Positions 6,251-58,645 of a DNA stretch of 64,000 nt are shown here, piece after piece (the stretch's first letter is position 1; the number at the start of each line of letters is the position of its first letter). Under the pieces are notes generated by a model, which saw nothing but the letters and a program-made list of their open reading frames with translations, was not told the origin of the DNA and made no database searches. The position numbers and the translations under genes were made by a program. The stretch lies in assembly GCF_044704955.1 (NCBI RefSeq), contig NC_092003.1, positions 7,006,001-7,070,000 of the forward strand, in the 5' to 3' direction. The DNA comes from Pristiophorus japonicus (lineage: Eukaryota).

Positions 6251-6609
6251 GTTACAAGGCATCGAGGTATATGGACATAAAATACACCGTCACTCCAAGG
6301 CCAAATGACCAGTCCTGTTGTAAAGGCACTGCGCAGCATTAATATATATAAAAAAATAGACCATAGGATGTGGAGTTAGATACCTGGCCTGTGTTTAGTT
6401 AGCCAGGACATTACAGTTGGCCTGAACACCCTTGAAGCACAGATTGGATAAAGCATAGACTCTCCCATCGTGCCTGTGCCAGCTCTTTGAAAGAGCGATC
6501 CCATTAGTCCCACTCCCCCTGCTGTTCCCCTATAGGCCGCAATTTCATTCTCCTTTTGAGTAAATTGGCCAGGGACCAGGCTCCTGGTCGTTAGCCACTG
6601 ACCTGTGGC

Positions 6610-15645: not shown

Positions 15646-18443
15646 TTACACCATAGAGGCGCAGAAGCTGGCATCTTGCTTGGGAGGTACGTAGTAGCGT
15701 GGGGCACGACTGAGCAAGTGCATCTGAATGTTCGCCTCTGGCCGAACAGCCGGAGAGAGAGAGGGCATGCGCGACAGACCAAATCGGGCACCCTGTCCAA
15801 GGCCGGGTGTATGTAGCAGAGCGGACTGAACGCTTCCTCTTGCCGCGGGTGTGTGCAACAGAGAGAGGCGGCCCCGGTCTTGCACGGCGGGCGGGGTTAA
15901 CAAACCGGAGCGGGCGCCTTCCGCCAGGGCATGCTTATTTAACAGAGCCAACTGGGCGATCTCGGCCATGCCGGGTGTGTTTAACAGTCTGGATCGGGAA
16001 CGTTCCCCTGGGACGGGCGTGCTTAACAGTCCGGATCGGGAATGTTCCCTCGGGATGGGTGTGTTGAACAGAGTGGATTGGGTATGTTCCCCCATGCCTG
16101 GTGTGCTTAACAGTCCGGATTGGACATGTCCTCCCATGGCCGGCGTATTTAACAGCCCCCACAGCGGACGCTCTCCCAGGATGGGTGTGTTCAACAGACC
16201 AGACCGGACACTCTCTCCCGGGGTGGATTTATATAAAAGAGTTGATCGGGCATTCTCTCCCAGGGCCTGTTTATCGGATAGACCAGATCGGACAATCTCT
16301 CCCGGAGTGGGTTTATTCAACAGACCAGATGGGACATGTCCTCCCATGCCGGGTGGATCTAGCAGTCCGGATCGGGGACTATCGCCCCTGCTGGGTGTAT
16401 TTAACAGTCTGGATCGCCCATGTCCTCCCAGGGCTTGTGTATTTAACAGACCAGATCGGACAATCTCTCCCGCGGTGGGTTTATTTAACAGTCCGGATCG
16501 GGGACCATCGCCCATGCCGGGTGTATTTAACAGTCCGGATCGGGCATGTCCTCCCAGGGTGGGTGGGTTTAACAGTCCGGTCCGGACACGCTCCCCCAGG
16601 GTGGGTGGGTTTAACAGGCCAGATTGGGCATGTCCTCCCAGGGTGGGTGGGTTTAACAGTCCGGTCCGGACACACTCCCACAGGGTGGGTGGGTTTAACA
16701 GGCCGGATTGGGCATGTCCTCCCAGGGCAGGTGGGTTTAACAGTCCGGATCGGGGACCATCGCCCATGCCGGGTGTATTTAACAGTCCGGATCGGGCATG
16801 TCCTCCCAGGGCGGGTGGGTTTAACAGAGCTGATCGGGCATGTTCCCCCAGGGCAGGTGTATTTAGAAGTCCGGATCGGACGTGCTGTGCCAGGGTGGAT
16901 GTTTTTGGCAGTCCGGATTGAGCATGTTCCTCTAGGCCGGGTGTATTTAACAGAGCAGATCGGGCATGTTGTCCCAGGGCGGGTGTATGTAGCAGTCCAG
17001 ATCGGGCATGTGCTCCCAGGGCGGGTGTATGTAGCAGAGCGGATTGAACACTTCCTCTCGCCGCAGCTGTGTGCAACAGAGCAAGGCGGCCCCTGTCTTG
17101 CACGGTGGGCGGGTTTAACAAACCGGAGCGGGCGCCTTCCCCCAGGGCGTGCTTATTTAACAGAGCCAACTGGGCGCTCTCTGCCATGCCGGGTGTGTTT
17201 AACAGTCCGCTTCGGGAATGTTCTCCCATGCCGGGGGCGTTTAACAGTCCGGATCGGGAGCCCTCCCCTAGGGTGGGAGAGTTCAACAAACCGGATCGGG
17301 AACCATCTCCCAGGATGGGCGAGTTTAACAGTCCGGATCGAGAACTTCCCCCCATGCCAGGTATGTTTAACAATCCGGATCGGGAACCTCCCCCCATGCC
17401 AGGATTGTTCAACAGTCCGGATCGGGAACCTCCCCCCGTGCCAGGATTGTTCAACAGTCCGGATCGGGAACCTCCCCCCGTGCCAGGATTGTTCAACAGT
17501 CCGGATCGGGAACCTCCCCCCGTGCCAGGATTGTTCAACAGTCCGGATCGGGAAACTCCCCCCGTGCCAGGATTGTTCAACAGTCCGGATCGGGAAACTC
17601 CACCCGTGCCAGGATTGTTCAACAGTCCGGATCGGGAACCTCCCCCCATGCCAGGTATGTTTAACAATCCGGATCGGGAACCTCCCCCCATGCCAGGTAT
17701 GTTTAACAAACTGGATTGTGGATGCTCCCCCAGGATGGATGTGCTTAACAATCCGGATCGGGAATGTTCTCCCAGGGTGGGTGTATTTAATAGTCCGGAT
17801 TGTGGATGTTCCCCTAGGAGGGATGTGTTTAACAGTCCGGATCGGGAATGTTCCCCCAGGGCGGGCGTGTTTAACAATCCAGGTCGGGCCCTTTTGTCGA
17901 CGGCGTGATTATCCTGCGCCATTTTTCTCTTGACAGGTATTCGGTTTTCCAGCTTGGGTGCAGGAGACGGCGAGAGGCGCTGGCGACGGTACAGGGACGT
18001 GCTTTTGGAGAGGCCTGGCGGCAAGCGACGGTGGGGCGGGCTGCTCGTGTACGGGTTGCGGGCGGATTCGGGCCGAGGGCAAAGCGGAGGCTGGGGCCTG
18101 CGCCGGAGTGCAAGCTGAGGCTGGAGCGGTAACTGCTCGTAATGATCGACATACTGCTCGGTCGCACTGGCAGGTTTATAATGCGGGCGGCAGAGAGGGT
18201 AACTCGAAGCTGCGGGGCCATACCTATCGAGGGAACCGTATGGAGCCCAGAAGCATTCGGCTGCCTGGTGGCCGGGTCTTCCGCAGCGCTGGCAATTTCC
18301 CACAGGACCGCCGGCCGATTGTGGCTTGGTGCTTTTCCCGGATAGCTGGTCCCCAATCTTCCTTGCCTTGACGTCAGTGGACTCCGTCTTGCTAATGGCT
18401 TTCAGCGCTTCCTCCTTGTGCTCCACGTGTACAAAGGCAGAGT
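15646..18443 (-). CDS. Exon 2 (terminal coding exon) of a diverged RBM4/RBM14-family paralog: half-RRM remnant, CCHC zinc knuckle, ~50 x 14-aa repeat
   Basis: Acceptor TCTCCTCTCTCAACAG|AC TCT GCC TTT gives (D)SAFVHVEHKEEALKAI, aligning to (D)YAFVHMEREEDAVTAI of the + gene in the same phase 1. CQRCGRPGHQAAEC at 18294-18253; LYRRQRLSP vs LYERTRLSP; 2798 nt open to TAA. Confidence 0.8.
15770..17886 (-). repeat. Coding 42-bp tandem repeat (~50 units; 14-aa consensus RSGLLNTPG/xM/LGE/GH/G)
   Basis: 42-nt periodicity (e.g. AGGATTGTTCAACAGTCCGGATCGGGAACCTCCCCCCGTGCC); frame maintained throughout. Confidence 0.9.
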
Positions 18444-18514
18444 CTGTTGAGAGAGGAGAAGCAGAATGAAGCAAGTGGGCACAAAGTGCGCGTGGTACGG
18501 AGCCAAAGTTTGAT

Positions 18515-19162
18515 CCGGAGGGGCAGTGCTGAGGGGTGCCGCGCTGTCGGAGGGGCAGTACCGAGGGAGTGCCGCACTGTCGGAGGGGCAGTACTGAGGG
18601 AGTGCCGTACTGTCGGAGGGGCAGTGCTGAGGGAGCGCCGTACTGTCGGAGGGGCAGTACTGAGGGAGCGCCGCACTGTCGGAGGGGCAGTACCGAGGGA
18701 GCGCCGCACTGTCGGAGGGGCAGTACTGAGGGAGCCCCGCACTGTCGGAGGGGCAGTACTGAGGGAGTGCCGCACTGTCGGAGGGGCAGTACCGAGGGAG
18801 CGCCGCACTGTCGGAGGGGCCGTACTGTCGGAGGGGCCGTACTGTCGGAGGGGCCGTACTGAGGGAGCGCCGCACTGTCGGAGGGGCAGTACCGAGGGAG
18901 TGCCGCACTGTCGGAGGGGCGGTATTGAGGGAGCGCCGCACTGTCGGAGGGGCAGTACTGAGGGAGCGCCGCACTGTCGGAGGGGCAGTACTGAGGGAGT
19001 GCCGCACTGTCGGAGGGGCGGTACTGAGGGAGCCCCGCACTGTCGGAGGGGCAGTACTGAGGGAGCGCCGCACTGTCGGAGGGGCCATCTCTCTGATGAG
19101 ACGTTAAATCGAGGCGCCATCTGCTCTCTCAGGTGGACGTAAATGGCCCCCATGGCACTATG
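18515..19162 (+). mobile_element. Deu-domain SINE fragment with 33-bp array, filling the paralog's intron
   Basis: Array at 18515-19085, then Deu core start GATGAGACGTTAAATCGAGG...AGGTGGACGTAAA...CATGGCACTA. Confidence 0.8.
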
Positions 19163-19267
19163 ACCTTGTTGCTATGGACACGAGGGGCCCGGTTGCCATG
19201 AAGCAATAGCGGCCGCCCGTGACGTCACCAGAAAGCCCTCACCGGGCGGGGCCGGTCGACCTCTCAC

Positions 19268-19496
19268 CTTTGGCGTCGGCGCAGTCGGTCGCGGGGCCGG
19301 AGTGGGCCTGCGGCTCCTGGCTGCCGCCTGGCGCCACGCTGTCGGCGCAGAGCGGCGCGGCGGCCTCGGGTCGGCCCTGCAGCTCGCTGCGACGCGGCGT
19401 CTCCTCCGTGGGCGTCAAGCCGTCGTGCTTGACCGCGCCGCAGGCTTCCGAGGTGTCGGCGGCGGCGGCGGCGGCGGCGGAGGAGGAGGCCGACAT
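19268..19496 (-). CDS. Exon 1 of the diverged RBM paralog (collapsed RRM1/RRM2 remnant)
   Basis: ATG at 19496; 229 nt (phase 1) ending GCC AAA G|GTGAGA. Residual similarity: SELQGR ~ YELHGQ, SVAPGGSQE ~ NLAPGCSNQE, DCADAK| ~ ECDIVK|. Splices in frame to 18443. Confidence 0.7.
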
Positions 19497-20113
19497 GTTT
19501 GTTCTGTCTCTCTCTCTCTCTTCGCGCGAAACACCTTCGCTCCCCTTCGGGCTTCGCGAGAGAGAAAAAAAGGAAACGCGCCCTCCTCACAAAATGGCCG
19601 CTTTTGGGGAGCGACAGCCGGCTCCACCAATCACATCCGCGCGGCGCAATAGCGCCATCCAATCAGGGGCCGCCTTCCGCCGGGGGCTTTCGGAGTGCCG
19701 CCTTTCCCAATTCCCAACCGCGTCCGCCGCCGGAGCGACAGCCGGCTGCACCAATCGCGGCGGCAAAGGCGCCATCCAATCGGGAGCCGTTGCGCGTGGT
19801 CGGAGAAGTCCCGCCTCCCTCGGAGGGGGGGGGGCCGGCAAGTCGATGGGGCGGGGCTCCGCGCGCGGGGGGGATAGGGGGATACGTGCGTGGCGATTGG
19901 CTGTACGTGATGAGCGGGGGGGCGGGAGCACGGCGCTGATTGGCCGGTGGCGCTGTCATTTAAAGGAAGAGAGCAAGGGGGCGCCCCGCCTCTTCATCTC
20001 GGCTGGCCGAACGAGGGGGAAGCGACGGGCGCCATTTTGTGAAGCGGGAGGAAAAAAGAAAAAGCAGCGCGGAGCGGGAGCGGGAAAAACGACCCAAGGA
20101 AAAGGACAGGACG
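19497..20113. promoter_or_regulatory. Bidirectional CpG-island promoter between the two RBM-family genes
   Basis: 617 bp between divergent ATGs; CCAAT at ~19627, 19659, 19707, 19751, 19776; ATTGG at ~19896, 19939; GC box GGGGCGGGG at ~19847; outward-facing YY1-like motifs AAAATGGCCG (~19590) and CGCCATTTT (~20030). Confidence 0.75.
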
Positions 20114-20444
20114 ATGAAGATCTTCGTGGGCAACATCGCGACGGAGGGCACGGCGGACGAGCTGCGCACGCTGTTCGAGTATTACGGCGCGGTGCGCGAG
20201 TGCGACATCATCCGCCATTACGGCTTCGTGCACATGGACAGCGCCGAGGAGGCGGGCCGCGCCATCCAGGCGCTGCACCAGTACGAGCTGCACGGCCAGA
20301 AGCTGAACGTGGCCGAGTCGCGGGCCCGGCCGGCCGCCGTCACCAAGGTCTACGTCGGCAACCTGGCGCCCGGCTGCAGCAACCAGGAGCTGCGCGCCAA
20401 GTTCGAGGAGCACGGCCGGGTGGTGGAGTGCGACATCGTCAAAG
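20114..20444 (+). CDS. RBM4: RNA-binding protein 4/14 family, coding exon 1 (RRM1 and N-half of RRM2)
   Basis: MKIFVGNI...ECDIIRHYGFVHM...TKVYVGNLAPGCSNQELRAKFEEHGRVVECDIVK, donor G|GTGTGT. The RRMs are RBM4-like; the start and intron position are RBM14-like, so the symbol is provisional. Confidence 0.9.
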
Positions 20445-21460
20445 GTGTGTGTGTGTGTGTGGGGAGAATGGGTGCCCCCGTGTGTGTGTGGTGGGTGGGG
20501 GGGGGGGGGGGTTGTGTGTGGGTGCCCCCGTGTGTGGGGGGGGAGAATGGGTGCCCCCGTGTGTGTGTGGTGGGGGGGGGGGGTTTGTGTGTGGGTGCCC
20601 CCGTGTGTGTGTGGTGGGGGGGGGGGGTTTGTGTGTGGGTGCCCCCGTGTGTGTGTGGTGGGGGGGGGGGGTTTGTGTGTGGGTGCCCCCGTGTGTGGGG
20701 GGGGAGAATGGGTGCCCCCGTGTGTGTGTGGTGGGGGGGGGTTTGTGTGTGGGTGCCCCCGTGTGTGGGGGGGGAGAATGGGTGCCCCCGTGTGTGGGGG
20801 GGAGAATGGGTGCCCCCGTGTGGGGGGGGGGGGAGAATGGGTGCCCCCGTGTGTGTGTATGGGGGGGGGGAATGGTTACCCCCGTGTGTGTGTATGGGGG
20901 GGGGAATGGTTACCCCCGTGTGTGTGTATGGGGGGGGGAATGGTTACCCCCGTGTGTGTGTATGGGGGGGGGGATGGGTACCCCCGTGTGTGTATATGGG
21001 GGGGGGGATGGGTACCCCCGTGTGTGTATATGGGGGGGGGGATGGGTACCCCTGTGTGTGTATGGGGGGGGGAATGGGTACCCCCGTGTGTGTATATGGG
21101 GGGGGGGGAATGGGTACCCCTGTGCGTGTGTGGGGGGGGTGAATGGGTACACCCGTGCGTGTATGGGGGGGGGGAATGGGTGCCCCCATGTGTGTGGGGG
21201 GGAGAATGGGTACACCCGTGCGTGTATGGGGGGGGGGGGGGATGGGTGCCCCCGTGAGTGTGGGGGGGGGTGGATGGGTTCCCCCGTGAGTGTGGGGTGG
21301 GGGGGTTAGGTGCCCCCGTGTGTGTGGGGGGGAGAATGGGTGCCCCCGTGTGTGTGGGGGGGGAGATGGGTGCCCCCGTGTGTGTGGGGGGGGAGATGGG
21401 TGCCCCCGTGCGTGTGGGGGGGGAGGTGAGTGCCCCCGTGTGTGTGGGGGGTGGGGTCCT
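20445..21460 (+). repeat. G/T-rich ~30-45-bp minisatellite at the start of RBM intron 1
   Basis: Repeats of ATGGGTGCCCCCGTGTGTGT(G)n; G-runs of 7-16 nt. Confidence 0.9.
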
Positions 21461-22029
21461 ACAGTAGCCCATTCAGCCCCTCTAGTCTGTTCTGTATAGT
21501 GACAGGATGCCATTCAGACCCTCTCGCCTTGTTTTTGAGGCTTCCTGTGTTTGAGTCCAGTGATGTAGTTTCACTTCCATACATTCTGGGCTTAATAGTT
21601 CTCTATTGTTCTGGTAACTCAATCACTGATTGAGGAGGTCACTTTGCCTGACAATGGGCTCCATTAGCCCACCTCCTGTTGGCCATTGTCATTCCACACT
21701 CCCTGCCCATCGTTCTAAGTCCAACATGGAGCCGCACCTGGGCCCCTCACACAAACAGCTTCCAGCTTTCTTTGGTGAGAAAAATATTAAACTCAATGTC
21801 CAATAAATCCTTGGGGGTCTGATGCTTCCAGTCCTTACACAGCATCAGGATGAAGTAATCGGGGTTTTCCCCAAGTCAGTCAGGTGATGTTCTTGGGGGG
21901 CCAATGGAAGAAAGGCAGATTTCGTTTCTGCGTAGTGCTAACGCGCTGAAAATTGGTCTATACCCGTGTGGTGCAGACAGAAGACATTTTCCCCCCCCCC
22001 TCGGAAGGTTTATGAGCGCTGTATAATCA

Positions 22030-22345
22030 TTATCATAGGCAGTCCCTCGAAATCGAGGAACACTTGCTTCCACTCTAAAAGTGAGTCCTTAGCTGACTGA
22101 ACAGCCAATACGAGAGCCACAGTCCCTGTCACAGGTGGGACAGACAGTGGTCGAGGGAAGGGGAGGGTGGGACTGGTTTGCCACACGCCCCTTCCGCTGC
22201 CTGCGCTTGGTTTCTGCACGCTCTCGGCGACGAGACTCGAGGAGCTCAGCGCCCTCCCGGATGCATTTCCTCCACTTGGGGCGGACTGGTCTTTGGCCAG
22301 GGACTCCCAGGTGTCGGTGGGGAATATTGCACTTTTTCAGGGAGG
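22030..22345 (-). mobile_element. RTE-clade LINE 3' fragment
   Basis: Minus strand encodes WRKCIREGAE.LESRRRERAETKR...VCPTCDRDCGSRIG.. (C-terminal zinc-finger region), then the tail CGAGGGACTGCCTATGATAATG. Confidence 0.7.
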
Positions 22346-22470
22346 GGTGTCCCTTGTAATGTTTCCTCTGCCCACCTTTTGGCTCGTTTGCCGTGGTATT
22401 GGGTATTTTTTAAGTGTGGCTTTGGTTAACGTGAGATGTAAACTCTACCATTCTCCCCCACCCCTTGCAG

Positions 22471-22969
22471 ACTACGCCTTTGTGCACATGGAGAGAGAGG
22501 AGGACGCGGTGACCGCCATCGCCAACCTGGACGACAAGGAATTCAACGGCAACCGCATCCGGGTGCAGCTCTCCCGCTCCACCTACGGCAAGTCCTCTGG
22601 GCAGCGGGAGGTGTGCCAGCGCTGCGGGCGACAGGGCCACCAGGCACGCGACTGCCACTCGGCGCGGCACAACCAGTACAGCCAGTACCAGTTGCCCTCG
22701 CAGTACTACCCCTCCTACTACTCCTACTGCGAGTACGACTACGGCCACAGCTCCTACTACGACTATTACGACGACTACCAGCAGGCCGGCGCCGCCGTCG
22801 GCTACGCGCCGCTCGACTACGCCCGCGAGAGGAGCCCCAACCGCCTGAGCGCGCCCGCTGCAGCTGCCGCCGGCGCCAACAGCGGCACCCTGTACGAGCG
22901 CACCCGCCTCTCGCCGCTCTCCGTGCCAAAGTATCAAAACGAGAAATTCATAGACGATAGCATCAGTAG
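22471..22969 (+). CDS. RBM4: RNA-binding protein 4/14 family, coding exon 2 (C-half of RRM2, CCHC knuckle, Tyr-rich low-complexity region)
   Basis: Acceptor CCCCTTGCAG|AC TAC GCC gives (D)YAFVHMEREEDAV; CQRCGRQGHQARDC at 22614-22655; RERSP and YERTRLSP; donor AG|GTATGT (phase 2). Confidence 0.9.
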
Positions 22970-29445: not shown

Positions 29446-29645
29446 NNNNNNNNNNNNNNNNNNNNNNNNNNNNNNNNNNNNNNNNNNNNNNNNNNNNNNN
29501 NNNNNNNNNNNNNNNNNNNNNNNNNNNNNNNNNNNNNNNNNNNNNNNNNNNNNNNNNNNNNNNNNNNNNNNNNNNNNNNNNNNNNNNNNNNNNNNNNNNN
29601 NNNNNNNNNNNNNNNNNNNNNNNNNNNNNNNNNNNNNNNNNNNNN
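29446..29645. other. Assembly gap (200 N)
   Basis: Run of n characters. Confidence 1.
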
Positions 29646-31241
29646 CTTGTTCCCACTTCCGCCCCCCCCCCCCCCCCCGCGATCTCCGGCCGTCCCTCGC
29701 GGCTGGAGTGCGGCCGTTTTGTGCGAGGTATCCGGGGGTTCGCTGCGGGTGCACGGGATCCGCCACTGAAGCTCAAGTCCGCAAACACAGTTACCGTAGG
29801 GGGAGGGGAGGGATCGGGGCGTTTGCCTGCTGCCGTGCCCCCACCCCCCCCACGCTCGTTTCCGCTCCGGGCGCCTGCCCGCAAACCGGCGGCTCTCGAG
29901 GCGCCGGGGGGTGGCTGAGGTGCGCGGCACAGCTTTGGGGCGGAGAACTGACTTCCAGCCCCCTCTTAAATGATCCTCGCCCTTTTAACTGTACCGCTGG
30001 TGCGAATAATAAGATTTAAAAAAATAAAAGGCTGCTTCTCCGTCTTCCCTGCCTCGGGCAGGGTGCTGTACTCCTACACCTCCTCGACAACGCTGTTCCC
30101 ACGCCGACTGCCGAGCGACGCACACGGAACGCCGATCCTCCTGTTGGTTGTACTTTTCTTTTGTCTTCCTGCAGCTCGGGGGGTGGTGGGTGGGGGAGGC
30201 GGTGTTGGAGGGCGGTTGCAAGTGCGTACGGCCGAATGTTACCGGGTCGAGGCTTACGGATACCGTTCGGACCTCCGACTTCCCCGAGGGAAAAGGTTCA
30301 CGCCCTTTTGCCCAGCTCCGGAAAAACGAGGTGCCGCTGTCTGATCGATGCCGCTGGCACAAACTGGAAAGCCGGGGGGGCAGGGGGGGGGGGTTCGATT
30401 GCCGACGCGTGCGTGGTTTGCTCAGCCGGCACGGAAGAGATGGCCGGGATGAGAATTGGCCGACTTTTTTTGCAATATTTCCGTGTGGCTGTCGGACTTG
30501 TTTGCGAGAGGACCGGCTGAGTGAGTGAGCGAGTGGGAGTGTGCCTTTCTACAGCTGCGACAGTAATACTCTTGAGCAAAGCTGCATTCTCTGGCAGGTA
30601 GGGGGCATGGCGAGTGTGCGCGCGCGCCTCTGTCGTGTTCAAGGGGTGCCCCCCCCCAACCCCGTGGTCTCTTGGAGGGAGCCGTAATGTGCAAATGGGC
30701 AGCTTTCCCCCTCCGCTGGTCCGGTGCGTAAACATGCCGTGCAGAGACCGAGCAGAAGGTTCCGCGTACATCCCCCCCCTGGTCCAGGCTGAGTCCTCTG
30801 GGGAGGGGTACCTCATTTGACTGCATCCTTGCCTGGTGTGTGTGTGTGGGGGCGGGGTGAAGTTTTGGCAGAGATCCTGTGCCCAACGGTTAGCCGGTGA
30901 CTCCTACCGAAGCGCGTGCGTTATGCGGACATTTGTGGTCGACACCGACTACCCCGCGCGTCATGACTACCCGGCATGAGGTGGGTTATTGGTGGTGAGA
31001 GAGAAGCTTTTGGGGGGGGTTGGGGGAGAGGTAGGAGTGGAATGGGATCCAGGGTGGTGCGTTTATACGTCCTGTCTGGTGTTAACTAAAATAAAAATGA
31101 GGCGCATTTAATTTACTTCCAGCATGACATGATTTAGTAGTTTATGTAATAATTGCCTACACTAGAGAACCAGTGTCTGAATTGAAGGAGTTGGAAGGGT
31201 GGGTAGGTAGGGGTGTTTTGTAACGTGTAGCTCTAAGATTC

Positions 31242-33384: not shown

Positions 33385-36300
33385 GAGCAAAAAGGGAGGG
33401 TGAACAGCCAGTTGTCGTGGTGCACATTGGTACCAACGATATAGGTTAAAAAAGGGATGAGGTCCTACAAGACGAATTTAAGGAGCTAGGAGCTAAATTA
33501 AAACGTAGGACCTCAAAAGTAGTAATCTCAGGATTGCTTCCAGTGCCACGTGCTAGTCAGAGTAGGAATCGCAGGATAGCTCAGATGAATACGTGGTGCA
33601 GCAGGGAGGGATTCAAATTCCTGGGGCATTGGAACCGGTTCTGGGGGAGGTGGGACCAGTACAAACCGGATGGTCTTCACCAAGGCAGGACCGGAACCAA
33701 TGTCCTAGGGGGAAGTGTTTGCTAGTGCTGTTGGGGAGGAGTTAAACTAATATGGCAGGGGGATGGGAACCAATGCAGGGAGACAGAGGGAAACAAAAAG
33801 GAGACAAAAGCAAAAGACAGCAAGGAGATGAGTAAAAGTGGAGGGCAGAGAAACCCAAGGCAAAAAAAGGGCCACTGAATATAAAGGGGCTGCAGGAGGG
33901 ATCAAAACTAAAAATCATGGTTTAAAAACTAGTATTAAAACACTCTACCTAAACGCACGCAGCATTCAAATAAAGTAAATGAGTTGATGGCACAAATCAT
34001 TACAAATGGGTATGATTTGGTGGCCATTACAGAAACGTGGTTGCAGGGTGGCCAAGACTGGGAATTAAACATACAGGGGTATCTGACGATTCGGAAAGAT
34101 AGACAAGAAGGGAAAGGAGGTGGGGTAGCTCTGTTAATAAAGGATGATATCAGGGCAGTTGTGAGAGATGATATTGGCTCTAATGAACAAAATGTTCAAT
34201 CATTGTGGGTGGAGATTAGAGATAGTAAGGGGAAAAAGTCACTGGTGGGTGTAGTTTATAGGCCCCCAAATAATAACTTCACGGTGGGGAGGGCAATAAT
34301 CAAGGGAATAATGGAGGCATGTGAAAAAGGAACGGCAGTAATCATGGGGGATTTTAACCTACATATCGATTGGTCAAATCAAATCGCAAGGGGTAGCCTT
34401 GAGGAGGAATTCATAGAATGCATACAGGATTGTTTCTTAGAACAGTATGTTACAGAACCTACAAGGGAGCAAGCTATCTTAGATCTGGTCCTGTGTAATG
34501 AGACAGGAATAATAAACGATCTCCTAGTAAAAGATCCTCTCGGAATGAGTGATCACAGTATGGTTGAATTTGTAATACAGATTGAGGGTGAGGAAGTAGT
34601 GTCTCAAACGAGCGTACTATGCTTAAACAAAGGGGACTACAGTGAGATGAGGGCAGAGTTGGCTAAAGTAGACTGGAAACACAGACTAAACGGTGGCACA
34701 ATTGAGGAACAGTGGAGGACTTTTAAGGAGCTCTTTCATAGTGCTCAACAAAAATATATTCCAGTGAAAAAGAAGGGCGGTAAGAGAAGGGATAACCAGC
34801 CGTGGATAACCAAGGAAATAAAGGAGAGTATCAAATTAAAAACTAATGCGTATAAGATGGCCAAGGTTAGTAGGAAAATAGAAGATTGGGAAAATTTTAA
34901 ACAACAGCAAAGAATGACTAAGAAAGCAATAAAGAAAGGAAAGATAGAATACGAAAGTAAACTTGCGCAAAACATAAAAACGGATAGTAAAAGCTTTTAC
35001 AGATATATAAAACGGAAAAGAGTGACTAAAGTAAATGTTGGTCCCTTAGAAGATGAGAAGGGGGATTTAATAATGGGAAATGTGGAAATGGCTGAGACCT
35101 TAAACAATTATTTTGCTTCGGTCTTCACAGTGGAAGACACAAAAACCATGCCAAAAATTGCTGGTCACAGGAATGTGGGAAGGGAGGACCTTGAGACAAT
35201 CACTATCACTAGTGGGGTAGTGCTGGACAGGCTAATGGGACTCAAGGTAGACAAGTCCCCTGGTCCCGATGAAATGCATCCCAGGGTATTAAGAGATGGC
35301 GGAAGTTATAGCAGATGCATTCGTTATAATCTACCAAAATTCTCTGGACTCTGGAGAGGTACCAGCGGATTGGAAAGCAGCTAATGTAACGCCTCTGTTT
35401 AAAAAAGGGGGCAGACAAAAGATAGGTAACTATAGGCCGGTTAGTTTAACATCTGTAGTGGGGAAAATGCTTGAAACTATCATTAAGGAAGAAATAGCGG
35501 GACATCTAGATAGGAATAGTGCAATCAAGCAGACACAGCATGGATTCATGAAGAGGAAATCATGTTTAACTAATTTACTGGAATTCTTTGAGGATATAAC
35601 GAGTATGGTGGATAGAGGTGTACCGATGGATGTGGTGTATTTAGATTTTCAAAAGGCATTCGATAAGGTGCCATACAAAAGGTTACTGCAGAAGATAAAG
35701 GTACGCGGAGTCAGAGGAAATGTATTAGCATGGATCGAGAATTGGCTGGCGAACAAAAAGCAGAGAGTCGGGATAAATGGGTCCTTTTCGGGTTGGAAAT
35801 CGGTGGTTAGTGGTGTGCCACAGGGATCGGTGCTGGGACCACAACTGTTTACAGTATACATAGATGACCTGGAAGAGGGGACAGAGTGTAGTGTAACAAA
35901 ATTTGCAGATGACACAAAGATTAGTGGAAAAGCGGGTTGTGTAGAGGACACAGAGAGGCTGCAAAGAGATTTAGATAGGTTAAGCGAATGGCTAACGTTT
36001 GGCAGACGGAATACAATGTCGGAAAGTGTAAAGTCATCCACCTTGGGGGAAAAAAACAGTAAAAGGGAATATTATTTGAATGGGGATAAATTACAACATG
36101 CTGCGGTGCAGAGGGACCTGGGAGTCCTTGTGAATGAAACTCTTTATCCCAAAAAGTTAGTTTGCAGGTACAGCAGGTAATCAGGAAGGCGAATGGAATG
36201 TTGGCCTTCATTGCGAGAGGGATGGAGTACAAAAGCAGGGAGGTCCTGCTGCAACTGTACAGGGTATTGGTGAGGCCGCACCTGGAGTACTGCGTGCAGT

Positions 36301-36838
36301 TTTGGTCACCTTTCTTAAGGAAGGATATACTGGCTTTGGAGGGGGTACAGAGACGATTCACGAGGCTGATTCCGGAGATAAGGGGGTTACCTTATGATAG
36401 ATTGAGTACACTGGGTCTTTACTCGTTGGAGTTCAGAAGAATGAGGGGTGATCTTACAGAAACATTTAAAATAATGAAAGGGATAGACAAGATAGAGGCA
36501 GAGAGGTTGTTTCCACTGGTCAGGGAGACTAGAACTCGGGGGCACAGCCTCAAAATACGGGGGAGCCAATTTAAAACCGAGTTGAGAAGGAATTTCTTCT
36601 CCCAGAGGGTTGTGAATCTGTGGAATTCTCTGCCCAAGGAAGCAGTTGAGGCTAGCTCATTGAATGTATTCAAGTCACAGATAGATAGATTTTTAACCAA
36701 TAAGGGAATTAAGGGTTACGGGGAGCGGGCGGGTAAGTGGAGCTGAGTCCACGGCCAGATCAGCCATGATCTTGTTGAATGGCGGAGCAGGCTCGAGGGG
36801 CTAGATGGCCTGCTCCTGTTCCGAATTCTTATGTTCCT
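33385..36838 (+). mobile_element. Near-full-length, 5'-truncated CR1 LINE (ORF1 esterase remnant + frameshifted ORF2 + 3' UTR)
   Basis: ORF1 SGNH-like VVVHIGTNDIG at ~33410; APE endonuclease motifs (AITETW, GVVYRPP, MGDFN, ILDLVL, SDH); RT motifs (YLDFQKAFDKV, GVPQGSVLGP, KFADD); frameshifts near 35290 and 36000-36160. Confidence 0.93.
33984..36746 (+). pseudogene. CR1 ORF2 (endonuclease-reverse transcriptase), disrupted into three ORFs
   Basis: ORFs 33984-35384, 35296-36180 and 36162-36746 are consecutive pieces of one pol protein in different frames. Confidence 0.88.
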
Positions 36839-53791: not shown

Positions 53792-54019
53792 GAGAGAGAA
53801 ATCGATCTCTGCCTATCCCAGCTCACCCGCAGCCTGTTTGGGTGAGTTACGAGCGAGGCAATTGCTGTGTGGCGCCGTGTGCCCGACTGAATCGGCACCT
53901 TCGGGGGAGGATGAGAGGTATACTAACAACTGCGGCATCTCCACCCCCCCCATCAGGAGTTAGTACGGCCGGGTGCAAAGATGACTGTTCTTGCTGACCT
54001 GCCTCCACTTGATTTGCAG

Positions 54020-54157
54020 GAATCCAGTCGGTGGATATAAATCTGAGCACGGAGCAAGTTCTCGTCGACACCACGCTGACGTCGGGGCAAGTGCAAGCAC
54101 TGATCGAGAACACGGGGAGACGGGCTGTGCTTAAAGGGATGGGCCCGGCCTCTCTCA
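54020..54157 (+). CDS. CCS: Copper chaperone for superoxide dismutase, exon 3
   Basis: TTTGCAG|(G)IQSVDINLSTEQVLVDTTLTSGQVQALIENTGRRAVLKGMGPASL A|GTAAGT; 138 nt, phase 1-1. Confidence 0.92.
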
Positions 54158-54203
54158 GTAAGTACAACAGCCTGTACCTGCCCTGGGAGTGTTTGATGGG
54201 ACA

Positions 54204-55637
54204 TAGAAAGATAGAAAATAGGTGCAGGAGTAGGCCATTCAGCCCTTCTAGCCTGCACCGCCATTCAATGAGTTCATGGCTGAACATGCAACTTCAGTAC
54301 CCCATTCCTGCTTTCTCACCATACCCCTTGATCCCCCGAGTAGTAAGGACTTCATCTAACTCCCTTTTGAATATATTTAGTGAATTGGCCTCAACTACTT
54401 TCTGTGGTAGAGAATTCCACAGGTTCACCACTCTCTGGGTGAAGAAGTTTCTCCTCATCTCGGTCCTAAATGGCTTACCCCTTATCCTTAGACTGTGACC
54501 CCTGGTTCTGGACTTCCCCAACATTGGGAACATTCTTCCTGCATCTAACCTGTCTAAACCCGTCCGAATTTTAAACGTTTCTATGAGGTCCCCTCTCATT
54601 CTTCTGAACTCCAGTGAATACAAGCCCAGTTGATCCAGTCTTTCTTGATAGGTCAGTCCCGCCATCCCGGGAATCAGTCTGGTGAATCTTCGCTGCACTC
54701 CCTCAATAGCAAGAATGTCCTTCCTCAAGTTAGGAGACCAAAACTGTATACAATACTCCAGGTCTGGCCTCACCAAGGCCCTGTACAACTGTAGCAACAC
54801 CTCCCTGCCCCTGTACTCAAATCCCCTCGCTATGAAGGCCAACATGCCATTTGCTTTCTTAACCACCTGCTGTACCTGCATGCCAACCTTCAATGACTGA
54901 TGAACCATGACACCCAGGTCTCGTTGCACCTTCCCTTTTCCTAATCTGTCACCATTCAGATAATAGTCTGTCTCTCTGTTTTTACCACCAAAGTGGATAA
55001 CCTCACATTTATCCACATTATACTTCATCTGCCACGCATTTGCCCACTCACCTAACCTATCCAAGTCACTCTGCAGCCTCATAGCATCCTCCTCGCAGCT
55101 CACACTGCCACCCAACTTAGTGTCATCCGCAAATTTGGAGATACTACATTTAATCCCCTCGTCTAAATCATTAATTTACAGTGTAAACAGCTGGGGCCCC
55201 AGCACAGAACCTTGCGGTACCCCACTAGTCACTGCCTGCCATTCTGAAAAGTACCCATTTACTCCAACTCTTTGCTTCCTGTCTGACAACCAGTTCTCAA
55301 TCCATGTCAGCACACTACCCCCAATCCCATGTGCTTTAACTTTGCACATTAATCTCTTGTGTGGGACCTTGTCGAAAGCCTTCTGAAAGTCCAAATATAC
55401 CACATCAACTGGTTCTCCCTTGTCCACTCTACTGGTAACATCCTCAAAAAATTCCAGAAGATTTGTCAAGCATGATTTCCCTTTCACAAATCCATGCTGA
55501 CTTGGACCTATCATGTCACCATTTTCCAAATGCGCTGCTATGACATCCTTAATAATTGATTCCATCATTTTACCCACTACTGAGGTCAGGCTGACCGGTC
55601 TATAATTCCCTGTTTTCTCTCTCCCTCCTTTTTTAAA
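54204..55637 (-). mobile_element. Young CR1 LINE 3' 1.4 kb, inserted into the 68-bp satellite
   Basis: ORFs 55176-55577 and 54294-55115 (RT and C-terminus); flanking duplication ATGGGACA at 54196-54203 / 55638-55645. Confidence 0.9.
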
Positions 55638-57741
55638 ATGGGACAGAGTAGAGGGAGATTTACTCTGTAACTAACCCCGTGCTGTACCTGCCCTGGGAGT
55701 GTTTGATGGGACAGTGTAGAGGGAGCTTTACTCTGTATCTAACCCCGTGCTGTACCTGCCCTGGGAGTGTTTGATGGGACAGTATGGAGGGAGCTTTACT
55801 CTGTATCTAACCCCGTGCTGTACCTGCCCTGGGAGAGTGTGATGGGACAGTGTAGAGGGAGCTTTACTCTGTATCTAACCCCGTGCTGTACCTGCCCTGG
55901 GAGTGTCTGATGGGACAGTGTAGAGGGAGCTTTACTCTGTATCTAACCCCCTATACCTGCCCTGGGAGTGTTTGATGGGACGGTGTAGAGGGAGCTTTAC
56001 TCTGTATCTAACCCCCTGTACCTGCCCTGGGAGTGTTTGATGGGACAGTGTCGAGGGAGATTTACTCTGTATCTAACCCCGTGCTGTACCTGGCCTGGGA
56101 GTGTTTGATGGGACAGTGTAGAGGGAGCTTTACTCTGTATCTAACCCCGTGCTGTACCTGCCCTGGGAGTGTTTGATGGGACAGTGTAGAGGGAGCTTTA
56201 CTCTGTATCTAAACCCATGCTGTACCTGCCCTGGGAGTGTTTGATGGGACAGTGTAGAGGGAGCTTTACTCTGTATCTAACCCCCTGTACCTGCCCTGGG
56301 AGTGTTTGATGGGACAGTGTAGAGGGAGCTTTACTCTGTATCTAAACCCATGCTGTACCTGCCCTGGGAGTGTTTGATGGGACAGTGTAGAGGGAGCTTT
56401 ACTCTGTATCTAACCCCGTGCTGTACCTGCCCTGGGAGAGTGTGATGGAACAGTGTAGAGGGAGCTTTACTCTGTATCTAACCCCGTGCTGTACCTGCCC
56501 TGGGAGTGTGTGATGGGACAGTGTAGAGGGAGCTTTACTCTGTATCCAACCCCCTGTACCTGCCCTGGAGTGTTTGATGGGCAGTGTAGAGGGAGCTTTA
56601 CTCTGTATCTAACCCCCTGTACCTGCCCTGGGAGTGTTTGATGGGACAGTGTAGAGGGAGCTTTACTCTGTATCTAACCCCCTGTACCTGCCCTGGGAGT
56701 GTGTGATGGGACAGTGTAGAGGGAGCTTTACTATGTATCTAACCCCCTGTACCTGCCTTGGGAGTGTTTGATGGGACAGTGTAGAGGGAGCTTTACTCTG
56801 TATCTAACCCCGTGCTGCACCTGCCCTGGGAGTGTTTGATGGGATAGTGTAGAGGGAGCTTTACTCTATATCTAACCCCGTGCTGTACCTGCCCTCGGAG
56901 TGTTTGATGGGACAGTGTAGAGGGAGCTTTACTCTGTATCTAACCCCCTGTACCTGCCCTGGGTGTGTGTGATGGGACAGTGTAGAGGGAGCTTTACTCT
57001 GTATCTAACCCCGTGCTATATCTGCCCTGGGAGTGTTTGATGGGACAGTGTAGAGGGAGCTTTACTCTGTATCTAACCCCGTGCTGTACCTGCCCTGGGA
57101 GTGTGTGATGGGACAGTGTAGAGGGAGCTTTACTCTGTATCTAACCCCCTGTACCTGCCCTGGGGTGTGTGATGGGACAGTGTAGAGGGAGCTTTATTCT
57201 GTATCTAACCCCCTGTACCTGCCCTGGGAGTGTGTGATGGGACAGTGTAGAGGGAGCTTTACTCTGTATCTAACCCCGTGCTGTACCTGCCCTGGGAGTG
57301 TGTGATGGGACAGTGTAGAGGGAGCTTTACTCTGTATCTAACCCCCTGTACCTGCCCTGGGGTGTGTGATGGGACAGTGTAGAGGGAGCTTTATTCTGTA
57401 TCTAACCCCCTGTACCTGCCCTGGGAGTGTGTGATGGGACAGTGTAGAGGGAGCTTTACTCTGTATCTAACCCCGTGCTGTACCTGCCCTGGGGGTGTTT
57501 GATGGGACAGTGTAGAGGGAGCTTTACTCTGTATCTAACCCCGTGCTGTACCTGCCTGGGAGTGTTTGATGGGACAGTGTAGAGGGAGCTTTACTCTGTA
57601 TCTAACCCCGTGCTGTACCTGCCCTGGGGGTGTTTGATGGGACAGTGTAGAGGGAGCTTTACTCTGTATCTAACCCCCTGTACCTGCCCTGGGAGTGTGT
57701 GATGGGACAGTGTCGAGGGAGCTTTACTCTCTATCTAACCC
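55638..57741 (+). repeat. 68/65-bp minisatellite (~31 units) filling CCS intron 3
   Basis: GGGACAGTGTAGAGGGAGCTTTACTCTGTATCTAACCCC(GTG)CTGTACCTGCCCTGGGAGTGTTTGAT; a partial unit also at 54172-54203. Confidence 0.95.
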
Positions 57742-57760
57742 ACGTGCCATTTCCCTGTAG

Positions 57761-57938
57761 AGGACCTGGGGGTCGCCGTGGCGATGCTCGGCCCAGAAGG
57801 CCTCATCAAGGGCGCGGTGCGCTTCCTGCAGCTGTCGGAGCGGCAGTGTATCATCGAGGGGACGATCGACGGATTGGACCCTGGCCTGCACGGTTTGCAT
57901 GTGCACGAGTTCGGGGACCTCACCCGCTCCTGCCTCAG
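57761..57938 (+). CDS. CCS: Copper chaperone for superoxide dismutase, exon 4 (SOD1-like domain)
   Basis: TTCCCTGTAG|(K)DLGVAVAMLGPEGLIKGAVRFLQLSERQCIIEGTIDGLDPGLHGLHVHEFGDLTRSCL AG|GTAATC; 178 nt. No further CCS exon found before the window ends. Confidence 0.93.
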
Positions 57939-58645
57939 GTAATCTGTTGCCGCGAGCGTGCGAGGGATGTGGGGTGCCCCGACCGTTGGGTGGGAAATTG
58001 GGGAGCGGCCGGCTTCCCCATTGGCGGAGGGGGGGGGGGGGGGCGACAGGACCAACATGGCCGACTTTCAGTGCCTCGTCTGATTCCCGGGCCCCGGCTG
58101 ACTATTTGGCTACAGCAGGAATCACAAGAGCGCCTCATTGGCTGTAAAGCGCCTTGGGACCTCCTGATTCGGTGATAGGCCCTATATAAGGACATCAGAA
58201 ATAGGAGCAGGAGTCGGCCATTCGGCCCCTCGAGCCTGCTCCGCCATTCAATACGATCATGGCTGATCTGATCATGGACTCGGGTCCACTTCCCCACTTC
58301 CCCTATCGGTTAAGAAACTGTCTATTTCCGTCTTAAATTTATTCAATGTCCCGGCTTCCACAGCTCTCTGAGGCAGCGAATTCCACAGATTTACAACCCT
58401 CTGAGAGAAGAAATTCCTCCTCATCTCAGTTTTAAATGGGCGGCCATTTAAGATATAAATCCAAGTCTTTTTATTCCACTTGCCGTCTCACATCTATCAA
58501 TACATCGGATAATGATCAATAGCGGCATCGTTGGTGAGTTTGCCCACAAGCCAAGCTGCTGCTCCGACTGACTGACCCATCCCGCGAGATCCGTCGGCCC
58601 GCGTTCTAGTCCTCTTCAACTGGGATTAACCAGCGTAATCCCACA

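Follow-up and report, generated by a model that had tools for sequence, protein, structure and literature searches.

A head-to-head RBM4/14-type duplicate in a sawshark with decayed RNA recognition motifs and a 50-unit Leu-Leu repeat array

Duplicated RNA-binding genes with amplified repeats are an already known kind, represented by RBM14, DAZ and RBMY; the latter two are lineage-specific duplicates whose tandem protein repeats have been amplified to varying numbers, and both keep a working RNA recognition motif (RRM). The RBM4, RBM4B and fish rbm4.x (Lark) proteins have two RRMs, a CCHC zinc knuckle and a short C-terminal domain. Exon 1 of RBM14 (CoAA) encodes one and a half RRMs, according to PMC4267627 and PMC1874587, and PMC1874587 derives the CoAA and CoAM forms from competing donors in exon 2. 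The PTB RRM2-interacting (PRI) motifs of Raver1 and Raver2 and the SETD2-hnRNP interaction (SHI) motif of SETD2 consist of a Leu pair with a Pro three residues on and sit in disordered stretches of proteins that by themselves bind RNA weakly or not at all. Here we describe a gene of the sawshark Pristiophorus japonicus that lies head-to-head with an RBM4/14-like neighbour, belongs to the RBM4/RBM14 family by descent, and joins decayed RRMs to an array of 14-residue repeats. It was found in a window, meaning the whole stretch of DNA analysed, of 64,000 nucleotides (RefSeq assembly GCF_044704955.1, contig NC_092003.1, positions 7,006,001 to 7,070,000, forward strand). A search of open-access full text found no literature on the gene or its motif, in line with an earlier, sequence-only reading that knew of no such RBM4/RBM14 member, but the gene is present in automatic annotation.

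The two coding exons of the candidate (Table 1) give a coding sequence of 3027 nt and a protein of 1008 residues. The donor AAAG/GTGAGA after 19268 and the acceptor CAG/AC at 18443 (slashes mark splice sites) are the sole GT-AG pair among 70 donor/acceptor offsets tried, and the sequence-only reading had placed the frame and the junction exactly there. The junction is found in spliced contigs from 3/3 runs, all of one study and representing at most three samples, in which the region 17700-18510 was examined; the kind of run is not recorded, and they are read as transcript-derived since the contigs are spliced and miss the intron. In each run exon 2 is joined to the end of exon 1 (217-221 letters of it), 17700-18445 is covered, and the intron stretch 18456-18510 is uncovered. 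A single-exon gene through the intron is ruled out by the spliced contigs. The 33-bp minisatellite of the intron contains no stop and shares the frame of exon 2, making a 1160-codon open frame (15649-19128, minus strand) that could mislead gene callers.

Two transcript forms are shown, a long one with the repeats and a short one without them. In 3/3 runs a contig reads past an internal donor, GATAG/GTATGG, to 17700 and so into repeat units 1-5, and likewise in 3/3 runs there is a loose contig end at 18224, where the contig departs to a distant last exon; the contig depths (329/342/290 for read-through, 89/23/51 for the internal donor) are unfit to rank the isoforms. This donor, which yields repeat-less isoforms, had been missed at first. 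The gene had also been called cryptic, which does not hold, as its short isoforms are already in UniRef: a Pristiophorus japonicus RBM4B-like isoform X3 and an RBM4.1-like isoform X2 equal the candidate over the first 149 residues, junction included. In UniRef isoforms P0003 and P0115, and also in P0005, an isoform of Heptranchias, the sequence departs from the long form after GSLD, at the donor after 18224. The short isoforms have unrelated tails; one uses a last exon at 6314, and the last exon of the other, at G000:C29:6946230, falls beyond the window, some 78 kb away from the donor. When the exon-2 protein and the Stegostoma ortholog were used as queries in word-index protein searches, among entries of 512-1630 residues for the former and longer ones for the latter, 0 of 8000 and 0 of 7999 candidates scored and no full-length 1008-residue record was retrieved, which does not show that none exists. 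Some 9 kb from the distant last exon (L022:1530, minus strand) there is an exon that is FAM89-like by eye (L030:1032-1319, plus strand) and has no Pfam hit, and further left there is a PALP-domain exon, serine racemase-like by eye (L033).

The array consists of exactly 50 units of 14 residues in unbroken register, with zero indels over 2100 nt, as against the roughly 50 open repeats first reported. It contains 0 stops, whereas 4000 neutral simulations averaged 10.6 and 0/4000 were stop-free; this expectation comes from a tree-based simulation, since a star-model simulation overstates it. The first Leu is kept in 50/50 units, with four codons in use, and the second in 47/50. Measured between units within the one gene, the ratio of non-synonymous to synonymous change (dN/dS) is 0.26 for SGLLNTP and 0.02 per Leu, whereas the seven remaining columns give 1.18; the Pro at column 10 has 0.27, and the Thr column (23/50 Thr) 0.99. 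When the units are connected by a minimum spanning tree (329 substitutions), the changes at the Leu pair comprise 19 synonymous ones and 3 that alter the amino acid (simulated amino-acid mean 24.6, minimum 12 in 4000), and core and spacer columns differ with a Fisher p of 5e-5. The gene is very probably coding and under selection.

The array residues are mainly Gly, Leu, Ser and Pro (393/700), with 4 aromatics, 1 of them Tyr, and 24 Ser/Thr-Pro sites. AlphaFold2 gives a mean confidence (pLDDT) of 32 and no fold; a solenoid was considered and found no model confidence. Because the Leu-Leu pair is constrained, the spacer nearly neutral and a fold absent, selection is taken to act on a short hydrophobic motif carried by a free spacer, and the array is probably a disordered multivalent motif array. 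The sequence-only reading had gone further, to a multivalent disordered scaffold; selection on the repeats and the lack of a predicted fold agree with it, while the scaffold role itself is still conjecture, though one that the selected Leu-Leu core puts in concrete, testable terms. The array appears to have expanded stepwise: units 6 and 13, 8 and 9, 10 and 11, and 27 and 33 are identical in DNA, and units 17-21 match units 46-50 at 187/210 bases. With about 15 units in orthologs, the 50 units look like a lineage-specific expansion. The 42-bp unit was found only at the candidate locus in a DNA search of the 5.9-Gb assembly that skips common words, and an origin as satellite or transposon was rejected on that result. 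Pfam names no family for the array, and the best outside protein hit is another minisatellite, beside a long interspersed nuclear element (LINE).

Exon 1 of the candidate has zero Pfam hits, RRM_1 reaches 14 bits against a cut-off of 20.7, and the RNP motifs are deleted or changed; the candidate is not a working RBM4 in the sense of two RRMs with intact RNP1 and RNP2. The CCHC knuckle of RBM4 is present, zf-CCHC scoring 22.2 bits in the short isoform P0003 (cut-off 20.8) and 18.2 bits in P0001, as is LYRRQRLSP, both already seen by the sequence-only reading. With tblastn, Heptranchias P0005 matches exon 1 in one frame (E 1.6e-7); the first six codons are gone, the deletions are all frame-keeping, and the start Met replaces the RNP2 Ile (G-N-I-S-A-S in the ortholog, N-M-S-A-S in the candidate). 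This ortholog from the sevengill shark (XP_067831709.1) is a short isoform with the same donor end, both RRMs (87 bits, 2 stretches) and the knuckle pattern. It is identical to the candidate at 92/150 positions and groups with it at 100/100, with branches of 0.78 for the candidate and 0 for Heptranchias.

Four carpet-shark orthologs, from Stegostoma (XP_048380948.1), Chiloscyllium plagiosum (XP_043538587.1), C. punctatum (XP_072407138.1) and Hemiscyllium (XP_060711762.1), are labelled 'uncharacterized' and annotated from a Met inside RRM2. They have 382-397 residues, are 41-46% identical to the candidate, and carry the same linker and about 15 unit lengths, with 9-12 Leu pairs at intervals that are mostly 14 or 28; 4/4 have lost the knuckle's first two cysteines. 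Eroded RRMs with an intact knuckle, as first described, are thus found in the sawshark but are not the general state, Heptranchias keeping its RRMs and 4/4 carpet sharks having a damaged knuckle. Because the sawshark and carpet-shark genes are damaged in different ways, the RNA-binding parts may well have decayed independently in the two, a reading that leans on the shark species tree. A second tree pairs the candidate with carpet sharks at 86/86, contrary to the expected species order, and was treated as long-branch attraction. The part shared across sawshark and carpet sharks is the repeats, not the knuckle, and the repeat domain is common to both lineages where seen. The most invariant block among the 5 orthologs is the linker LYRRQRLSP..PKLENRIPVKRK, which may be a nuclear localization signal-like element.

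Such losses could also mean that the paralog is slowly decaying, a passenger transcribed from a shared promoter whose domains erode while the array is merely kept open. The destroyed RRMs of the candidate, the damaged knuckle of carpet sharks, the branch of 0.78 vs 0, the unrelated short-isoform tails and spacer columns evolving at about the neutral rate would all suit it. We nevertheless consider slow decay very unlikely, given the residue-specific Leu-Leu constraint, the lack of any indel in 2100 nt, an exon 1 that has a substitute start codon and deletions that keep the frame, and the retention of linker, repeats and cap in two distant shark lineages.

RBM14 is among the closest described counterparts and has a like layout. 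Both genes have an RBM4/14-family origin and a large repeat-bearing exon 2, the one-and-a-half-RRM exon 1 being found in the neighbour, and in both an internal donor in exon 2 drops the repeats, the long and short forms of the candidate mirroring CoAA and CoAM. However, the repeats are SGLLNTP 14-mers and not Tyr/Gln motifs (the 700 residues hold a single Tyr), the candidate has a knuckle, its RRMs are lost in two lineages whereas both are essential for CoAA, and it stands head-to-head with its neighbour and not in tandem. The two RRMs and CCHC knuckle of the RBM4 group are seen in the neighbour and in the Heptranchias ortholog, whereas the candidate has no scoring RRM and a 700-residue array in place of the short C-terminal domain. 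DAZ and RBMY differ in their working RRM and in repeat sequences unrelated to those of the candidate.

This RBM14-like layout, with repeats in a large exon 2 that an internal donor removes (for RBM14, see PMC1874587), points to another alternative, in which the array is a self-associating low-complexity domain of Leu-pair stickers and Gly/Ser/Arg spacers that forms a nuclear or germ-cell condensate without a single folded partner. The repeats of RBM14 drive paraspeckle targeting and hydrogels, according to PMC4539981, and the Gly/Leu/Ser/Pro-rich composition, the lack of a fold and the variation from about 15 to 50 units are consistent with self-association. We hold it to be unlikely: 4 aromatics in 700 residues are unlike the Tyr stickers of RBM14, and strict Leu-Leu at a fixed 14-residue period with a free spacer resembles a bound motif more.

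Instead, we hypothesize that the copy gained its repeat domain where the parent's exon 2 ends, and that the long form would be a nuclear disordered chain showing about 45 SGLLNTP Leu-Leu motifs on free spacers, each docking weakly on the helical back face of RRM2 in hnRNP L/LL or the PTB family. Ancestrally, the protein would be a Raver1-like co-regulator whose RRMs and knuckle recruit hnRNP L/PTB factors to RNA; where the RRMs have been lost, it would serve these factors as a scaffold or sponge independent of RNA, and the internal donor would turn the array off, like the CoAA/CoAM switch of RBM14. RRM2 of hnRNP L/PTB is predicted as the partner tentatively, as possible but short of probable; the fuller proposal, an RRM-shedding splicing factor turned motif-only sponge for hnRNP L/PTB with valency set by repeat number (about 15 to 50) and a splice-donor off-switch, is more doubtful.

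SETD2 (KVLLPTP) depends on a Leu pair for its anchoring to the helical face of hnRNP L RRM2 (PMC8575775), as do the Raver1 PRIs for theirs to PTB RRM2 (PMC3420021). LLxxP occurs 40 times in the candidate and 5-7 times per ortholog, LLNTP 11 times, and the unit's LLNTP is one position apart from the LLPTP of SETD2. Since the shark hnRNP L exon with the pocket residues Leu251, Ile256, Tyr257 and Leu263 (numbering mapped by spacing) is 31/32 identical to 7EVR chain A, the pocket is taken to be kept. As RRM2 of the shark protein is spread over three exons, units 25-27 were modelled in complex with hnRNP L RRM2 from a fish; this prediction scored 0.45 vs 0.02 for the best of 3 controls and lends weak support; the runs agree in at least 58% of contacts, with a partner pLDDT of at least 47, and the mark is reached by 51/78 solved and 2/108 mismatched pairs. 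A genome search with Pfam RRM_8 gave no matches, controls included. Elsewhere, two RRM_5 clusters about 54 kb apart (G000:C28:13341343 and 13395453), one of them hnRNP L, are possibly a tandem hnRNP L-family pair.

Several points weigh against this partner. Scores of 0.60 or less came from just 5/78 solved pairs, yet from all 4 passing mismatches (of 180); the tool is uncalibrated for peptides and disordered chains, a pass may be memory, like complexes being solved, and the RRM2 used is a stand-in from a metagenome contig. The AlphaFold2 model of the array rests on a thin alignment of 5 sequences, and the word-index searches retrieved no long Heptranchias isoform, which does not show its absence. 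LLPTP is found in 0/50 units, and the flanks, which set specificity and include a Lys at -2 and an Asn at -5 in the SETD2 motif (PMC8575775), lack both residues in the unit. The unit consensus fails the PRI pattern [S/G][I/L]LGxxP and its high-affinity version [S/G][I/L]LGx[AVP]P, having Asn where Gly is required. There are 2 strict PRI matches in the candidate (SLLGEHP, SILGEHP), both off-register and with His at position 6, a residue tied to low affinity in PMC3420021; high-affinity matches number 0, and strict matches are 0 in 4/4 orthologs. Compared with the 4 motifs of Raver1 and the 1 of SETD2, the candidate would have about 45, with Asn and not Gly or Pro after the Leu pair, and with binding that is predicted. 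Independently of this, the linker after RRM2 in fish hnRNP L (L054, L056) has LLGDHP, near the SLLGEHP and SILGEHP of the candidate.

That the unit fails both known RRM2-binding patterns would also be expected if the Leu-Leu/Thr-Pro unit were a motif for another folded partner, such as proline-directed kinases, phospho-Thr-Pro readers or a WD40 adaptor, making a phosphorylation-tuned scaffold. The Ser/Thr-Pro sites and the constrained column-10 Pro are in keeping with this, but the Thr column is unconstrained, and we regard such a partner as distinctly unlikely. Should hnRNP L/PTB binding be true, the RRM2 ligand code would be widened to Asn after the Leu pair, and the array would amount to a naturally occurring sponge of high valency, acting on a splicing-regulator surface whose ligands have 1-4 motifs per protein in the papers cited. 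The 50 naturally varied units show which positions of the Leu-Leu motif matter. One gene is seen with RRMs and knuckle both intact, with the knuckle alone and with neither, a three-state series on which the change from a regulator that binds RNA to a scaffold independent of RNA, and the effect of motif valency, can be tested directly; its reach is limited to sharks, the only group in which the gene is seen.

Table 1. Coordinates of the candidate gene, its neighbour and associated features (positions within the window)
Feature	Position	Strand	Remarks
Exon 1, coding part	19268..19496	-	229 nt; ATG 19496; RRM1 remnant and first half of RRM2
Intron	18444..19267	-	824 nt, GT-AG; mostly 33-bp minisatellite at 18516-19085
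Exon 2, coding part	15646..18443	-	2798 nt: RRM2 remnant, knuckle, linker, array, C-terminal cap, stop
CCHC zinc knuckle CQRCGRPGHQAAEC	18253..18294	-	Pfam zf-CCHC
Internal alternative donor GATAG/GTATGG	18218..18226	-	last exonic base 18224; use excludes array
Conserved linker LYRRQRLSP..PKLENRIPVKRK	17923..17994	-	basic; aligned to neighbour's LYERTRLSP..PKYQN
Repeat array, 50 x 42 bp, coding	15793..17892	-	aa 261-960; majority unit HSRSGLLNTPGLGE
C-terminal cap (..EANIQMHLLSRAPR..) and stop	15646..15792	-	matches KANLKKHLLSLAPR in 3/4 carpet-shark orthologs
AATAAA	15456..15461	-	candidate polyadenylation signal of long isoform, seen in the sequence-only reading; 185 nt past stop
Alternative last exon, coding part	6290..6314	-	short isoform P0003, ends RTGHLALE
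Shared spacer to neighbour	19497..20113	.	617-bp CpG island; GC 0.65, CpG observed/expected 1.11
RBM4/14-like neighbour	20114..22969	+	exon 1 20114-20444; exon 2 22471-22969; probable last coding exon from 28956

An inverted duplication had been proposed, and the comparison of the two genes agrees: on opposite strands and 617 bp apart, they match by blastp with an E value of 2e-22 (70/211 identical). The junction K/DSAFVHVE of the candidate falls where the neighbour has K/DYAFVHME, both in phase 1, exactly as the sequence-only reading had it; the N-terminal part of exon 2 has only two matches genome-wide, the candidate and the neighbour, and the array starts just beyond the point matching the end of the neighbour's exon 2. 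The neighbour has one and a half RRMs in exon 1, with the rest of RRM2, the knuckle and a Tyr-rich tail in exon 2. The adjacent gene is taken as the parent type because four other family loci break the exon at (E/D)FKG instead. The RRMs of the neighbour are closer to the solved RBM4B RRMs (E 7e-23, 2e-20) than to RBM14 (9e-15); tree placement relative to tetrapod RBM14 is weak (support 28/5), in a tree without any named RBM14 protein. Downstream on the plus strand lies a CCS-like gene (54013-57957; HMA at 54013, Sod_Cu at 57805), and human RBM14 and RBM4 adjoin CCS as well. The best explanation is that the candidate is an old shark-lineage duplicate of an RBM4/14-type gene beside CCS, inverted head-to-head with its parent.

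A HMMER search over representatives gave 113 hits, and among the 9 examined 4 are real relatives (P0002, P0003, P0005, P0024) and 5 unrelated repeat proteins. The ESM Atlas returned one lead under the bar ('putative RNA-binding protein 14', 0.77), and the array had no usable hit there. Four further RBM4-type loci have another exon layout (L004, L005, L006 and L008, on G000 C19 and C29), L008 being more diverged than the others, with an altered second RNP1. An RBM4/14-like gene at G000:C29:16976858 (L007:1363-2295, plus strand) has both RRMs in one exon, a Ser/Gly insertion within RRM2, a Pro-rich tail and a long tree branch (1.42).

The 617-bp spacer contains 7 CCAAT boxes and one GCCATTTT motif ahead of each start (19591, 20031), putatively NF-Y and YY1 sites, and may act as a shared head-to-head promoter. 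Just past the neighbour's probable last coding exon there is a 200-N assembly gap at about 29447-29646, followed by a GC-rich stretch. Further along, long LINE-like endonuclease/reverse-transcriptase frames in three pieces occupy 33939-36743 (plus strand), the introns of the CCS-like gene hold a LINE fragment and a 68-bp minisatellite, and 33-, 57- and 68-bp minisatellite arrays are scattered over the window.

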